A stretch of 51,914 nt of DNA, from assembly GCA_029762535.1 (NCBI GenBank), contig JARVGK010000022.1, positions 1 to 51,914 of the forward strand, in the 5' to 3' direction. The stretch is from Thermoplasmatota archaeon (GTDB lineage Archaea; Thermoplasmatota; Penumbrarchaeia; Penumbrarchaeales; Penumbrarchaeaceae). How positions within the stretch are numbered: the first letter of the stretch is position 1; every line of letters starts with the position of its first letter. The notes under the pieces were generated by a model. The model searched no databases. It was not told where the DNA came from and worked only from the letters and a program-made list of their open reading frames with translations. Position numbers and translations under genes: made by a program. Positions 819 through 9,800 of the stretch are shown here, in pieces.

Positions 819-3800
819 ATGACGCCGACCATACTTGTTTACAATCCACCATCTACAGACGACATATCGGTCATGGAAGCCGCCGCCTCATCAGGGGCGC
901 TGGGGATCCTGGACCTGGAATATATGGAAATAGACTCCATAAAGAGGATATTGTCCTCCCTTGGGTCAAAGGGTTTCCCCTTCGGGATCCGAGCGGATCC
1001 CACCGGCGAGAAGATGATGTTGCTGATGGGGGACGAGAGGCCCACTACCCTAAGGATGCTGGTGTGCATCAGCAAAGGTGGGATGGGGGAGATGATCCGA
1101 AAGAGCATATACGAAACGGCCTCCGGAATGGGTATAGAGGTGGTACAGGAGGTATGCGATCTTGAGGAGGCGGACGAGTCCGCAAGGAGCGGGATCGGGA
1201 CGATAGTGGTCAGGGGGCAAGGTTCCGGAGGGCGCATCGGATCCCTGCCCGAGTTGGATTTCGCATCGAAGGTCAAGACATCGAATCCGAACGTCAAGGT
1301 CCTCGTGATGGGGGATGTCGGCCTAAAGGACATGGATACGCTTGTGAGATCAGGAGCGGACGGGATCGTCCTCGATTCACAGGTGGTCGGGTTTCCCGAT
1401 AGGATGGAGGAGGCAAAGATGCGCGCTTCCGTTCCCACGAGGGTTGTCATGGCGGACATAGGCAAGGGCATGAGGATGAACATGGGGGGCGAGGGAGAGC
1501 GCATAGCCGCAATTGACGCCCAGCTCGCATCATCCGGAGCCGGGGGCAAGGAGAGGTACAAGGCAGTGAGGTCCGAGATAGCATCGGTGATATCCTCCGG
1601 AAAGGACCCGTTCGTTCTCCTAGGTCCCGGAGCCTCGAAACATCTGAACGGTTTGGAGGAGATCGGGGCCTCGGGCCCAACATCGGAAAGGGCCACACCC
1701 GTGCAGAGGGTTCCCGCGATGAGGGAACGGACCGTCACCGTGGACGGAAGACCCGTGCCTCCTGATTACTACGACAACGCCGTGGCGATAATCGGTTTGG
1801 GTTCGGTATTCCCCAGGGGCATAGGCAACGACAATTTCTGGAGGATGGTCCTCGACGGCGTGGACGCGTGCACGGAGGTGCCCCCGGAAAGATGGGACTG
1901 GCGCCTGCACTACGATCCCGATCCAAGTGTTCCGTACAAGACCTATTCAAAGATCGGAGCGTTCATCAAGGATTTCCACATGGACTACAAGGAGTTCAAG
2001 ATCCCCCCGAAGGCCTTCGACCAGTTCGACCTTTTCCAGAGGTACGCGATCAGGGCGACGAAGGAAGCGCTGATCGATGCGAACATATTCGACCGCAAGG
2101 ACCTGGACAGGGACAGGATAGGATGCGTCATCGCCAACGCCAGCGGAGGGGAGAGAAGGGACTGGGTAGCTCTCAGGACCATGTTCGAGGAGCTAGAGTC
2201 ATGGACCCGCTCCATGGAGGATTGGAAGGCCTTTCCCGAAGATGTTAGAGAGAACATGCTCGGGACAATCCGCAAGGCCCTGGAGACGAACGTGTTCGAT
2301 ATCGATGAGGACACGATGCCGGGATCGCTTCCGAACATATCCTCCGGGAGATTGGCCAACATGTTCGACCTGCGGGGGCCGAACTTCATAACCGACGCCG
2401 CGTGCGCCTCGACCATTGCCGCGATATATTCATCCATCAACCAGCTCAACCTGAACCACATAGATATCGGGGTCACCGGCGGGACCGACTCGGGTCACAA
2501 CTCGCATGTTTACATAGAGTTCTGCAAGATAGGAGCGTTGACACCAGACGGCTCGCGGCCGTTCTCGGACGGGGCCAACGGCTTCCTGATGGGTGAGGGT
2601 GCGGGCACTATCGTCCTGAAGAGGATCGAGGACGCGGTAAGGGACAACGACAGGATATATGCCGTGATAAAGGGTATAGCGGGATCCTCCGACGGGAAGG
2701 GCAAGGGCATAACCGCACCAAACCCCAGAGGCCAGACGAGCTCTGTAAAAAAAGCCCTTCTGGATGCAAAGGTCGATCGCTCGACGATATCCTTCATAGA
2801 AGCTCACGGAACCTCGACGATAGTCGGAGATGTCGCGGAGCTGGCGAGCCTTCAGGAGGTATTCGGAGGGTTGCCGAAGGGAACCATAGGGCTCACCTCG
2901 GTCAAGTCCCAGATAGGGCATCTCAAGGCGGCAGCGGGAGCTCCTGGCATGATAAAGGCCGCCCTTGCCATACATAACAAGGTGCTGCCACCTCAGATAA
3001 ATTTCGAGAAGCCCAACAGGTACTTCGATTGGGAAAAGTCCCCTTTCTACGTGATAACGAAGACAATGGAATGGAAGAGGATCGCACAGGACACCCCCAG
3101 GAGATGCGGCGTATCCTCGTTCGGATTCGGCGGTACCAATTTCCACGTGGTCATGGAGGAGTTCGACCCGACCATCTACTCCGCATGGAAGAGGGTAAAA
3201 GAGGCGAACCCCCGTAAGGTCCAGGAGGCATCGTCCGGGCCGGGGGCGCCTCTTGAATACGATATGGAGAAGATATCCGAATACATGGCCAAGAAAGGGG
3301 ACCTGGTGTCGGAGGTTTTCTTCTTCGATTCGGACGATCCCTTGAACATGCTGAAACTGGCGGAGGAGGCTTCTGAAGAGGCCAGGTCCGCGATCAGGCT
3401 AAGGGACGTATGGAAGAGGCCCGAGGGTAAGGGCAGGTACAGGCTGGCGATCGTGGCCAAAGACGCCGCCCATTTCGCGGACCAGATAGCAATGTTGAAG
3501 AAGGTCGGAATGAACGAGAAGGCCCTGATGGCCCTTGCGGCCAAAGGTATATTCGTCGGGGACAGGGAGAGGATACGGAACAGGAAGACATGCCTAATGT
3601 TCCCGGGACAGGGATCGCAGTACATCAACATGTTCAGGGACCTCTCCGAGAAATATTCCATAGTCAGGGACGCCTTCTTCGAGGCGGATGCCGTGATGAA
3701 GGACTACATAGACGACCCTCTGAGCTCGTACGTGTTCAGGGACGTGGAATTGGGGACATCCGAGTACAAGGAGGCTCAGGCGACCCTGACCAGGACCGAG

Positions 3801-6800
3801 TTCAACCAGCCGGCGATGCTGACAGCGGATACGGCGATGTACAAGCTCCTTCGATCGTACGGAGTTGAACCGGACATAGTCATGGGCCACTCCCTTGGCG
3901 AATACGGGGCCTTGATCGCATCCGGGGCGCTTTCGTTCAAGGACGCCCTAATAGCGGTATCCGCAAGGGGCAGGGAGATGAGGGACCTGCCTGTGGAGGA
4001 CCCTGGAAAGATGGCCTCCATAATGGCGGGAGTGGACGAGGTGGAAAAGGTACTATCCAAGATCGACGGATACGTGATAGCCGCGAACAAGAACTGCTAC
4101 ATACAGACCGTGATAGCGGGGGAGTCAGCCGCGATGGACGAGGCGGTGGCGAAGTTCAAGGAGATGGGAATAGAGGCGCAGTTCATCCCCGTTTCTCACG
4201 CGTTCCATTCAGCCGTGGTCGCTCCCGTCAGACCCATACTCAGGAACTACCTTGCAAAGCTGGATTTCAGGACCCCTGCCATACCCATACTTGCGAATAT
4301 CGACGGTGATTACTATCCCGGAGGGGGGGATCCCGATAAGGTGAAGGAGAGGATGCTCGATATCCTCGAGGAGCAGGTCGCTGCATCGGTCGAATGGATA
4401 AAACAGGTGCAGAGGGCCCATGCTGATGGGTGCAACGTGTTCATTGAATCCGGCCCAAAGCGCGCCCTGTCCACCTTCGTATACAACATACTCGAGGAGA
4501 AGGTCAAGAAGGGGGAGGTATTCCCCGTCACATCGAACCATCCAAAAAAAGGCGGCATATTCTCCTTCAACGAGATGCTCGGTTCCCTCTGGGCGATAGG
4601 CTATGATCTGAAGTTCCCGGATGTGAACGACGAGACGTTCTTCGACCCGGGCTTCCTGCACGCTCTGGACCGATTCTCGAAGCCGAGAGAGGCCCCGATC
4701 GTATCACCTCCGGTCGTCATTGAAACACCGCCTGCTCCCCCGCCGGTCTCATCTTCCGCTCCGACCTTCGACGAGTTCATGAGGGAAAACGCAAGGGCGT
4801 TCGAGGATTTCCTGAAGGAGCGGTTCGAAAGCTATGTAGGTAGAACGGGCACCGAGGCTCCCGCGCCGCAGATCCCTTCCAGAGTGGTGGAGAGGGTCCG
4901 GGACAGGCGCAGGATCGTCGTTACCGGGGTATCAATGGGGCTTCCAGGCAGGTTCAAGAAGGTCTTCTCCGAGGATAATTTCGATCTGCTTATCCAGGGA
5001 AGGGACCTCATTGGCACGATCGACCCGTCCCGGAGAGAACGTATCCTCGAGAAGAACATCGTACGTCTAGAGAAGAGGCCGGACGGCTCGGCCGAGATGA
5101 TCAAACTGGACGACGATTCTATGATCGCGCATCTCGCGGGCCTGCTCGGCGATTTCGATCCGGTATCCGAGTTCGGCATACCTCAGAATATCGTGGAGGA
5201 CCTCGATATGACCTCGAAGCTCGCGTTCGCCGCGGGCCTGCTGGCGCTCAGGGACGCTGGGATCCCTCTGGTGAGGAGATATTCCCAGACCACTACCGGG
5301 TCATATCTTCCAGAGGGTTTCGAGCTTCCACAGGAGCTACAGGAGGACACCGGGATCATATTCGCATCCTCCTTCCCGGGAATGAACAATGTGTTCAGGA
5401 ACCTGAAGGAGTTCTACAAGGACAAGGGATCATACACCATGCCCAGGCATATCATGTTCCAGATCCTTGCCATGGCCCATTCACAGTTCGCACAATATAT
5501 AAAGGCGAAGGGACCGAACACGCAGGTGAACTCCGCGTGCGCATCGACCACTCTGGCCATAGCGATCGCTCAGGACTGGATAAGCACAGGCAGGTGCAAG
5601 AGGGTAATAGTCCTTGGCGCTGACGATCCGGCGAACGACGATTCGATCGAGTGGCTGGGATCCTCCCTCCTGGCCCTTGGTGCGCTTACGACAGAGAAGG
5701 ACGTGTCGAAGGCCGCCGTCCCGTTCGACAGGAGGAGGAGCGGGATGATAGTAGGTTCGGGTGCGGTAGGGCTGGTACTGGAATCGGAAGAGGGGCCTCG
5801 CCGAAGGGGGATGACCCCCATCGTTGAGGTACTGGGGTCCCATATCGGCAACTCGGCCTTCCACGGATCGAGGCTCGACATACCTCATATCGCAAGGTCC
5901 ATGGACCGCTTCATCACAAAGATGGAGAGGGAGCACGGACTGCGCCGTGAGGAACTCGCTCCCGACCTGATCTTCATGTCCCATGAGACCTATACTCCGG
6001 CCCGCGGCGGTTCATCTGCGGCGGAGGTGGAGTCGCTGAGGAGGACCTTCGGGGACAGGTTCAAGGACATACTCATAATGAACACCAAAGGTTTCACGGG
6101 CCATGCCTTCGGTTGCTGTATAGAGGACCCGGCCCTTTTGATGAGCATAAGGACCGGGAGGGCGATACCGATCGCCAATCTGGACCCGAAGAACATAGAT
6201 CCCCAGTTCGAGGGATTGAACCTCTCCAATGGCGGGAACCATGAGCGTAGATACGGATTGAGACTGGCCGCAGGGTTCGGATCCCAGCTCGCCTTCGTTC
6301 TGTTCAAGAAGACCTCTTTGGAGGAATTCCCAGAAGATAAGGCAAGGTATGGGTCCTGGCTCCGTGCGATAGCAACGACCGAGCCCGTTGAGCTGGAGGT
6401 CGTACAGAACGTGTTGCGTCTGAGGGACGGGGGGATCTCGAACCTCATCCATTACAGGGCGATCAGGCGCGAGTCCGCCGAGATAGGTTTCGAGAGAGGG
6501 GAGGCTTCAAACATACCAGAGGAGAAGTTCAGCAGGTTCAAGGACGAGATACTCAGGATCTTCTCGGAGAAGACCGGGATCGCCGTGGAACTGATAGACA
6601 TCGATGCCGATCTGGACTCGGACCTCGGTATAGATTCGGTGAAGCAGGTGGAGCTCTTCGCAGCCGCGAGGACGGCCTTCGACCTGCCCAAGGACGAGGG
6701 AGTTAACCTCAGGGACTATCCGACATTGAGGAAAGTGATAGACTACGTCGCCTCCAAGAGCGCATGGGGGCAGGTGGATATCGACACCGCACCCACCCCC

Positions 6801-9800
6801 TCCCCCTCGAACGAGATAGAGAAGAGGATCGTAGAGATAGTCTCGGAAAAGACAGGGTATTCTCCGGACATGCTAGACCTGGACCTCGACCTCGAGGCTG
6901 ACCTGGGCATAGATACGGTGAAGCAGGTGGAGCTCTTCGCCTCGGCGCGTGGCGAGTTCGATCTACCCCGGGACGATACCGTGAACCTCAAGGACTTCCC
7001 GACGCTGAGGCACATCATCGATTACGTCTCGTCCAGGGCCAAGGTCGAGCCTCAGTCCAAGCCGGGGAAGACCGCCCAGCCCTCTATGGAATCTCAGGCT
7101 GACCTTATCCGGGACCGGATCGTGTCCATCGTGGCCGAGAAGACGGGGTATCCCTTGGACATGCTGGAGTTGGACCTCGATCTCGAGGCTGACCTGGGCA
7201 TAGATACGGTGAAGCAGGTGGAGCTCTTCGCCTCGGCGCGTGGCGAGTTCGATCTACCCCGGGACGATACCGTGAACCTCAAGGACTTCCCGACGCTGAG
7301 GCACATCATCGATTACGTCTCGTCCAGGGCCAAGGTCGAGCCTCAGTCCAAGCCGGGAGAGGCCGCCCAGCCCTCTATGGAATCTCAGGCCGACCTTATC
7401 CGGGACCGGATCGTGTCCATCGTGGCCGAGAAGACGGGGTATCCCTTGGACATGCTGGAGTTGGACCTCGATCTCGAGGCTGACCTGGGCATAGATACGG
7501 TGAAGCAGGTTGAGCTCTTCGCCTCGGCGCGTGGCGAGTTCGATCTACCCCGGGACGATGCTGTCAACCTCAAGGACTTCCCGACGCTCAGACACATAAT
7601 CGATTACGTGACATCAAGGGCCTCTATGGGATCGGAGAAGAGCGGGGACGTTTCGAAGAAAGCATCCGTTGAGGAACTTAAGCAAAGTGTTAACAGATGG
7701 GTCCTCCAGGCGGACCCCGCTCCTGCGATAAAGGATGCGAAACCCCGTCCGCTCGAAGGGAAGAGGCTTCTGATGTTGGGGAACGCATCTCCCGATCTCA
7801 TCAGGGAAAAGCTCGGTTGCGAGGTCGTCCGGGTGACGATGGAGGATGTCCTTATGGAAAGAGTGGAGATCTCCGACTTCCATGGGATGCTGGACCTGTC
7901 CATTCTGGATTCGAGCTTCGATCCACTCAAGGACGATTGGAAGATAGAAACGGACAGGGTCATTCTACCGCTATTCAGGATAGCAAAGGGCATGCATGAT
8001 GTGCTGAAGAACGGCGGGACCTTCGTGACGGTCACGACCATGGGGGGCCGATTCGGAACGGATCGGCCTGTGAACCCCCTAAATGGCGCCGTATCCGGTT
8101 TCACCAAGGCATTGAAGAGGGAATACCCCTCGTCCCAAATAATGGTCTTCGATGTAAGGCCCGACCTTGAAAAGGAGGCGCTTTTCGAAAATCTCTCCCT
8201 CGAGCTAGGGGTTTCCGATACACCCCCGGAGGTGGGATGGGACGGAAGACGTTTCATCCCCGCACTGAGGATCATCACCCCCTCATTGGAACCGGGAGGG
8301 ATCAGAAACGGCATGAGGATACTGATATCGGGCGGGGGCACCGGGATCACGTCGGAGATAGCCAGGGGCCTGGCAGATCGTGCGAAGCTGGACCTGCATC
8401 TCATGGGACGAACTTCGCTTCCGAAGGACATAAAGGAATTGGCATCCCTCGACGAGAAGGGCATGGCCGAAAGAAAGGATAGGATCAAGGAGAAGCTCAA
8501 GAAGGGCAAGGACAAGGTCACCCCTGTCATGCTGGAGAGGGAATATTCGAAACTGGAGAAGGCCATATCGATATATCGCCTGATCGAGGATATAGAGAGA
8601 AGGGGGAGCGTGGCACATTACCACAGCGTCGACGTGACGGACGCAAAGGCAGTATCAAAGATAGTGAAGCACGCAGGAGAGATCAACGGTGTCATACATG
8701 CGGCGGGGATAGAGCAGAGCAAACTCCTAATCAACAAGACCGAAGAGGATTTCTCAAGGGTTGTGGACACCAAGATCGTAGGGGCCGCGAACATCATCGA
8801 GGCCACCAAGGACCACCCTCTGGAATTCTTCGTATCCTTCTCATCGGTCGCCGGAAGGTTCGGCAATGCGGGGCAGGCGGATTACAGCGCTGCCAACGAC
8901 ATGCTTGACAAAATGTGGGGCACCGTTCGCTCGCTGCATCCAGATTGCCTCGTGAAGGCCGTAGGTTGGTCGGCGTGGGCGGATGTGGGTATGGCGAGCA
9001 GAGGCTCGGTCAAGACCATACTCGAGATAGGCGGAGTGACCTTCATTCCGATCGCCGAAGGCGTGGAATACGCGATCGCCGAGATGATATCTGGCAGGGA
9101 AAAGGAGGTGTTCTACGCCGGGTCGATGGGCCCCCTGGACAACGAGGGGACAATGAGATGGTCGGAGGGCGTCCATCAACCCTATCCTTTGGGCATCTCC
9201 CCGCTCCTCGACAGCATGGATACCAAAGATGAGATCAATATCTTCAGGAGAAGGCTGGATGGACGCAGGGAGATATTCCTCAACGACCATCGCATAATGA
9301 ACGTCCCTGTACTCCCCGGGGCCATGGGTGTCGAGATGTTCTCTGAGGCCGCTCAGAGGGTCTTGGGCAGCAGGGTCGAGCTCTTCGACGTAAAATTCAA
9401 CAGACCAGTGAACGTCGATCCATTCCTTGATGTGGAGATACACACGAAGGAGGACGGCTCTGGCGCCATCGAGATGGAACTCGTATCCGGTCCAGAGGAC
9501 AAGAGAGTGATACACTTCACCGCAAGGGCACGGTCCATGAAGAAGGAGAAGACCGAACTCATCAAGGGACATCCGATCCGGCCTGGAACGGTCCTTGCGA
9601 GGATATCCGCGAAGGAGATATACCCCCATCTGTTCCTGGACGAACTCTTCCATGTTCTATCAGGAGCAGAGGTGCTCGGAGACGGAGAGTTCCTCGGCGT
9701 ATACGAACCGGTCAAAGGAGATCTAATAGATCCGGGATACGGTTTCTCGAATGCGGATATGGAATACTCTCCTATGCATGTGGAGCTGGGTTTCCAGCTT

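Follow-up and report, generated by a model that had tools for sequence, protein, structure and literature searches.

Threonine at the acceptor position of tandem carrier domains in an archaeal Type R-like synthase and its relatives

Introduction

The tandem acyl carrier protein (ACP) domains of PfaA in the polyunsaturated fatty acid (PUFA) synthases are loaded by the phosphopantetheinyl transferase (PPTase) PfaE, while the alpha subunit of the fungal fatty acid synthase (FAS) and the enediyne polyketide synthases (PKSE) have an integrated C-terminal PPTase on the same polypeptide as their serine-type carriers. The acceptor serine is regarded as an invariant that defines every acyl and peptidyl carrier protein, and its presence is the criterion by which annotation pipelines and papers recognize a functional carrier. 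Here we describe a synthase encoded in a stretch of 51,914 nucleotides from a Thermoplasmatota archaeon (GenBank assembly GCA_029762535.1, contig JARVGK010000022.1, positions 1-51,914; hereafter the window), where one of four tandem carrier domains has serine at this position, the other three have threonine, and the polypeptide ends in a PPTase domain of its own. Comparison with related proteins suggests that probably all four carriers work, the fused PPTase loading serine and threonine alike.

The Type R secondary lipid synthase cluster (Shulse and Allen, 2011, PLoS One 6:e20146; PMC3098273) was described as a pfaA homolog with the layout KS-MAT-'CLF'-ACP(3-6)-KR (ketosynthase, malonyl acyltransferase, chain-length factor, ACPs, and ketoreductase) together with a dedicated PPTase. 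In some cases the cluster is accompanied by an acetyl-CoA carboxylase (ACC) gene. It has no assigned product, and its description, which names strains such as Roseiflexus castenholzii, Koribacter versatilis, Solibacter usitatus, and Elusimicrobium minutum, makes no mention of threonine. As late as 2026 the 'conserved Ser' has been used as a check for functional ACPs of the PfaA type (PMC13291983). A full-text literature search found no report of threonine-linked phosphopantetheine; the matches to 'threonine' were irrelevant, concerning either substrate threonine or a residue beside the serine (PMC11744666).

The Four Carrier Domains

The synthase is encoded by an open reading frame (ORF) of 9.9 kb at 819-10745 on the + strand, which is also the strand of all other features of the window given below, and the translation comprises 3308 amino acids. 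The Pfam PP-binding profile identifies four carrier domains, located at 6543-6749 (ACP1), 6825-7028 (ACP2), 7113-7319 (ACP3), and 7404-7610 (ACP4). ACP1 has the motif LGIDSVK with Ser1940 (TCG, 6636-6638) as acceptor, whereas ACP2, ACP3, and ACP4 share the motif LGIDTVK with Thr2033 (ACG, 6915-6917), Thr2130 (ACG, 7206-7208), and Thr2227 (ACG, 7497-7499) at the same position. The preliminary description of this DNA had placed the TCG codon at 6636 and the ACG codons at 6915, 7206, and 7497, which is exact.

Against PF00550 (cut-off 20.8) the four domains reach scores of 31.8-38.8 bits. The (D/H)S motif by which the acceptor serine of PP-binding domains is recognized is present in ACP1 (Ser1940) and absent from ACP2-4, which have threonine. 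In phmmer alignments to ACPs of solved structure this threonine shares its column with the phosphopantetheinyl serine. An AlphaFold (AF2) model of ACP2, built from an alignment of 76 family sequences, has a mean predicted local distance difference test (pLDDT) score of 83.8 and lets helix II begin at Thr2033. Its best Foldseek matches are canonical ACPs, with template modelling (TM) scores of 0.79-0.88 and a root mean square deviation of 1.4 Å.

A Pfam search of the genome to which the window belongs (93% complete) found no carrier domains other than ACP1-4 of the synthase, and the same search returned no further PP-binding domains in three related genomes with threonine-only synthases (G003, G008, and G016). 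These results bear on the idea that the ACP-like domains are not working carriers and that the synthase depends on a separate ACP in trans. This is a formal possibility, as divergent small carriers can escape Pfam, but with no other PP-binding domain found in any of the four genomes it seems highly improbable.

Threonine Is the Common State of the Family

A direct search for homologs favours sequences that share words such as GIDTVKQ, and its results were set aside. The family was instead surveyed through named genomes and through KS2, a second, divergent ketosynthase of the thiolase fold that corresponds to the 'CLF' of the Type R clusters and serves as family marker (5427-6398, residues ~1537-1860, delimited by phmmer and alignment). 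As a query KS2 is independent of the ACP sequence. It was compared by phmmer with 1.84 billion cluster representatives, and the acceptor column of the retrieved proteins was read with an ACP profile. Among the best 150 representatives, 116 have threonine in all carriers, 4 have serine in all, 13 show a mixed or odd pattern, and 18 are fragments that lack ACPs. When all retrieved KS2-bearing proteins are pooled, 225 of 242 are all-threonine and 4 are all-serine. The preliminary description regarded threonine as the anomaly and proposed a survey of homologs with the GIDT motif, in particular those with threonine carriers only; such proteins turn out to make up nearly the entire family, and the premise is thus inverted. 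A cultured organism with an all-threonine synthase is Desulfoluna butyratoxydans, whose protein (P0096) has eight threonine carriers.

The acceptor column of 977 carrier domains holds threonine in 95% and serine in 4% of the cases, and the surrounding DLG(I/V)DTVKQ is conserved at 94-99%. No alternative conserved serine is found in these domains, every other column containing at most 19% serine. Two more threonines, at residues 2012 and 2062, are also conserved at about 95%.

A scan in which each GTDB species was represented by a single genome gave at least 595 confirmed relatives. The best 80 of these span Thermoplasmatota, Heimdallarchaeota, Myxococcota, Chloroflexota, Acidobacteriota, Elusimicrobiota, Actinomycetota, and other groups, and contain 231 threonine versus 2 serine acceptors. 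The threonine is encoded by ACG in 97 cases, ACC in 93, ACA in 25, and ACT in 16. Such synonymous turnover with a fixed amino acid indicates selection for threonine. It also disposes of the suspicion that the ACG codons stem from faulty sequencing or assembly. Tandem repeats are error-prone, but the codon occurs in three separate copies in the window, and hundreds of independent assemblies have threonine at the position by way of all four of its codons, so that error can be excluded as a practically negligible explanation.

The proteins with any serine acceptor are dispersed over the KS2 tree of the family, where 10 changes are needed to explain them and at least 6 are forced. Threonine appears to be the ancestral residue at the acceptor position in this synthase family and is nearly universal there, with serine as the exception.

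The Fused PPTase and the Loading of Threonine

The C-terminal PPTase domain (10119-10742) scores 34.9 bits against the ACPS profile PF01648 (cut-off 25). It is of the Sfp type (group II, with two-lobed domains of about 220 amino acids) and aligns as a whole to residues 55-182 of Sfp (1qr0/4mrt), while its N-terminal half aligns to AcpS. The residues H3185, D3202, E3204, E3249, and K3253 match H90, D107, E109, E151, and K155 of Sfp, and these five catalytic and Mg-binding residues are invariant in 10 archaeal orthologs, including five that have threonine carriers only (P0005, P0011, P0013, P0015, and P0057). A fused PPTase is found in 48 of 265 family proteins, the majority of the 48 being all-threonine; serine-type members with this arrangement are few (P0138 and P0166). 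In the genomes G003 (96% complete) and G016 the all-threonine synthase accounts for every PP-binding domain that was detected and for the single PPTase, and G008 has in addition one small AcpS-like gene only. That an intact PPTase has been kept for so long in proteins and genomes without any serine carrier would be difficult to account for if the enzyme did not act on threonine, and such activity is therefore likely.

According to the model we prefer, the four domains would make up the tandem carrier array of an iterative fatty acid or polyketide synthase of the PfaA family, resembling those of Type R. The fused PPTase would transfer 4'-phosphopantetheine from CoA to the threonine hydroxyl of ACP2-4 and to the serine of ACP1, and all four carriers would then work in parallel. 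A threonine-linked phosphopantetheine arm on ACP2-4 is thus likely, and phosphopantetheinylation of threonine is the most likely outcome of the comparison as a whole. The suggestion in the preliminary description that the fused PPTase modifies threonine is favoured by the intact PPTases of the all-threonine orthologs and genomes; the loading itself we infer from this comparison. For the family at large we find it fairly probable that O-(4'-phosphopantetheinyl)-threonine is a natural modification, that a specialized clade of Sfp-type PPTases makes it for lipid or polyketide synthases belonging to a very large family in bacteria and archaea, and that carrier and PPTase form a pair that the housekeeping AcpS-type enzymes cannot touch.

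Several observations weigh against this model. The S36T variant of the E. coli ACP is no substrate for its PPTase and does not function (PMC3340395), so threonine is no generic acceptor and its loading would require a specialized enzyme. The PPTase literature also defines the target as a conserved serine (PMC4103896). Moreover, the genome of the window contains a second PPTase, of the AcpS type and 119 amino acids long (contig C47:25924-26247; L010 9898-10257, - strand), which could in principle serve ACP1, and in this genome the fused domain is thus not quite the sole candidate. Finally, the all-threonine genome G002 also has a truncated paralog with a serine carrier.

As for the context of these two genes, the AcpS-type gene overlaps the end of a gene for an AMP-binding ligase and lies within a glycosyltransferase island with a GC content of 34-44%, compared to 54-57% in the window; no recognizable carrier protein is found near it. 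The truncated paralog in G002 (L121, contig C43:1-1604) ends just after KS2 and a single serine-type carrier with the motif DLGVDSVTQ.

The threonine carriers might also be functional by another chemistry, with a prosthetic group or an attachment residue other than the usual one, or through O-acylation of threonine directly, without phosphopantetheine. The conserved Thr2012 and Thr2062 would offer candidate residues for this. Such a solution nevertheless seems unlikely, since throughout the family the synthase is fused to, or lies next to, a PPTase with an intact CoA- and Mg-binding catalytic set (our data; PMC3098273), the threonine is found at exactly the position that PPTases target, and serine, the classical phosphopantetheine acceptor, replaces it freely in the same column.

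Serine in ACP1

Of 23 sampled genomes from the archaeal family to which the window belongs, 22 contain the synthase, indicating that it is an old and maintained resident; it was also found in all four genomes of a second family of the same class. A FastTree phylogeny of 68 carrier domains from 13 proteins unites all ACP1 domains in a strongly supported clade of their own, separate from all the domains that follow (ACP2-n). ACP1 thus appears to be an orthologous domain representing an old, separate lineage that evolves independently of ACP2-n.

The acceptor of ACP1 is serine in 11 and threonine in 13 of 24 archaeal orthologs. On the KS2 tree of the same 24 proteins this distribution takes 5 parsimony changes, of which at least 2 are forced by strongly supported branches, and one flip between the two residues has occurred within a single genus, where the branches are about 0.04 changes per site. 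Most of the serine-type orthologs use TCG or TCC, while G006 has AGC. The serine codons TCN and AGY are not one step apart, but each is one step away from the ACN codons of threonine, and the mixture therefore points to independent threonine-to-serine events. Together these observations indicate that the serine of ACP1 is a sporadic variant which has arisen repeatedly. It would be a near-neutral single-nucleotide change (ACG to TCG), gained and lost several times in the archaeal family.

These data bear directly on the other option raised in the preliminary description, namely that only ACP1 is active and ACP2-4 are structural spacers. In this reading ACP1 alone would be phosphopantetheinylated, with ACP2-4 in the apo form and acting as spacers or docking modules. 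Serine is the sole proven acceptor, as the dead E. coli variant illustrates, and ACP1 is both the first domain of the array and a separate, older lineage. But ACP1 itself has threonine in the five orthologs with invariant PPTase residues listed above and in the genomes G003, G008, G016, and G023; these orthologs have no serine carrier, and neither does most of the family. The threonine domains also keep the DLGIDTVKQ motif, conserved at 95-99%, and a canonical fold, neither of which a spacer would need. Within the folded core, ACP3 and ACP4 differ by 7 synonymous and only 2 non-synonymous changes. Taken together this makes a synthase with ACP1 as its only active carrier improbable, and a model where all four domains are loaded is preferred.

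Some of the archaeal orthologs deviate in other respects. In P0008 the ACP1 motif (residues ~2030-2040) is GIES rather than GIDS, the conserved Asp preceding the acceptor being replaced by Glu. Three genomes of one genus (G004, G015, and G010; L034-L036) have a shorter ORF of 2171-2230 amino acids with only two or three carriers, serine followed by threonine, and the synthase there appears to be split or truncated. In G020 (contig C4:36226-43200) the synthase is distributed over three separate ORFs of 1387, 768, and 585 amino acids, and may be frameshifted, decaying, or mis-assembled.

Amplification and Gene Conversion of ACP2-4

ACP2-4 form a tandem repeat (6866-7609) which according to Tandem Repeats Finder (TRF) has a unit of 291 nucleotides, 2.6 copies, and 96% identity. 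ACP1 lies outside this repeat and shares 47% of its amino acids and 63% of its nucleotides with the other three. It is thus correct that, as noted earlier, the threonine version is the one that was amplified. A comparison of the codons in the window shows that identity is distributed as a mosaic: the differences between ACP2 and ACP3 are confined to codons 0-26, while ACP3 and ACP4 differ only beyond codon 39. This pattern suggests that ACP2-4 have undergone gene conversion.

Serine is found at the acceptor position in none of the 56 ACP2-n domains of the carrier tree. Gene conversion will either erase or spread a single change, and toggling would for this reason be visible in ACP1 alone, with the threonine version being the one amplified. 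ACP1 would be too diverged from ACP2-4 to be homogenized with them, and serine is accordingly confined to it. The amplification of threonine is best explained by an ancestral threonine combined with gene conversion among ACP2-4.

Other Domains and Genomic Context

According to Pfam the synthase starts with a FabK/NMO-like domain, followed by a KS at residues 320-730 and an acyltransferase (AT) at residues 927-1235. Beyond KS2 and the carrier array, a ketoreductase (KR, residues 2501-2721) and a dehydratase (DH) of the PS type (PS-DH, residues 2795-3063) precede the PPTase. The catalytic Cys and both His residues of KS2 are invariant in 30 of 30 aligned family members. These residues make KS2 look like a working ketosynthase, not a chain-length factor, and it would be a 'CLF' by position only.

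A gene encoding a one-piece ACC (10833-17261) is found downstream of the synthase. It is the probable supplier of malonyl-CoA, and is mentioned here as context only. In the closest orthologous loci (L007 17823-20419; L009 19153-21716) genes for a 2-oxoacid:ferredoxin oxidoreductase (POR/TPP/Fer4) directly follow the synthase, and in the window the ACC gene takes their place.

Implications

New here are a natural array with mixed serine and threonine acceptors, the repeated toggling of ACP1 between the two residues, and an explanation of their distribution by gene conversion. If the model is right, phosphopantetheine has a new attachment residue, in a family that numbers hundreds of members at species level (one genome collection yielded at least 595 matching stretches), and there exist PPTases with an altered acceptor specificity that might become orthogonal tools for labelling and engineering. 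The mixed array of the window would in that case show that one PPTase accepts both residues, and a whole class of synthases that look inactive would be rescued from mis-annotation. For archaea the question bears on how organisms lacking a native ACP system run an acquired synthase of the fatty acid type. The locus is a convenient test object, as a single polypeptide combines one serine carrier, three threonine carriers, and a PPTase.

Comparison with Known Systems

The synthase of the window has the KS-MAT-CLF-ACP(3-6)-KR layout of the Type R clusters, with four ACPs. The PPTase motifs of that system, x(G/D)xP (P1a) and hShxH (P1b'), are conserved and read GGKP and ISISH in the window. In the Type R clusters the PPTase is encoded by a downstream gene, while here it is fused to the C-terminus of the synthase. 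The window further differs in having the FabK-like N-terminal domain, the PS-DH domain, an archaeal host, and an ACC in one piece.

PfaA (TIGR02813) and the window synthase have in common near-identical tandem carriers placed after KS and AT, a motif of the type GID(S/T)(V/I)K, and a partner PPTase of the Sfp type. The window synthase scores 997.3 bits against TIGR02813, the model for polyketide-type PUFA synthases, which is just below the cut-off of 1010.1 bits. The canonical PfaA-like matches without KS2 (P0087, P0095, and P0106) have serine only.

In E. coli AcpP and its partner AcpS the S36T replacement is the same change, at the same position and in the same fold, as that seen in ACP2-4. 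The E. coli variant cannot support growth (PMC3340395), whereas in the family of the window threonine is the selected state and is accompanied by its own Sfp-type PPTase. The fungal FAS alpha subunit and the enediyne PKSE share the self-activating layout with the window synthase; while their carriers are of the serine type, the carriers in cis to the PPTase in the window family have mostly or only threonine.

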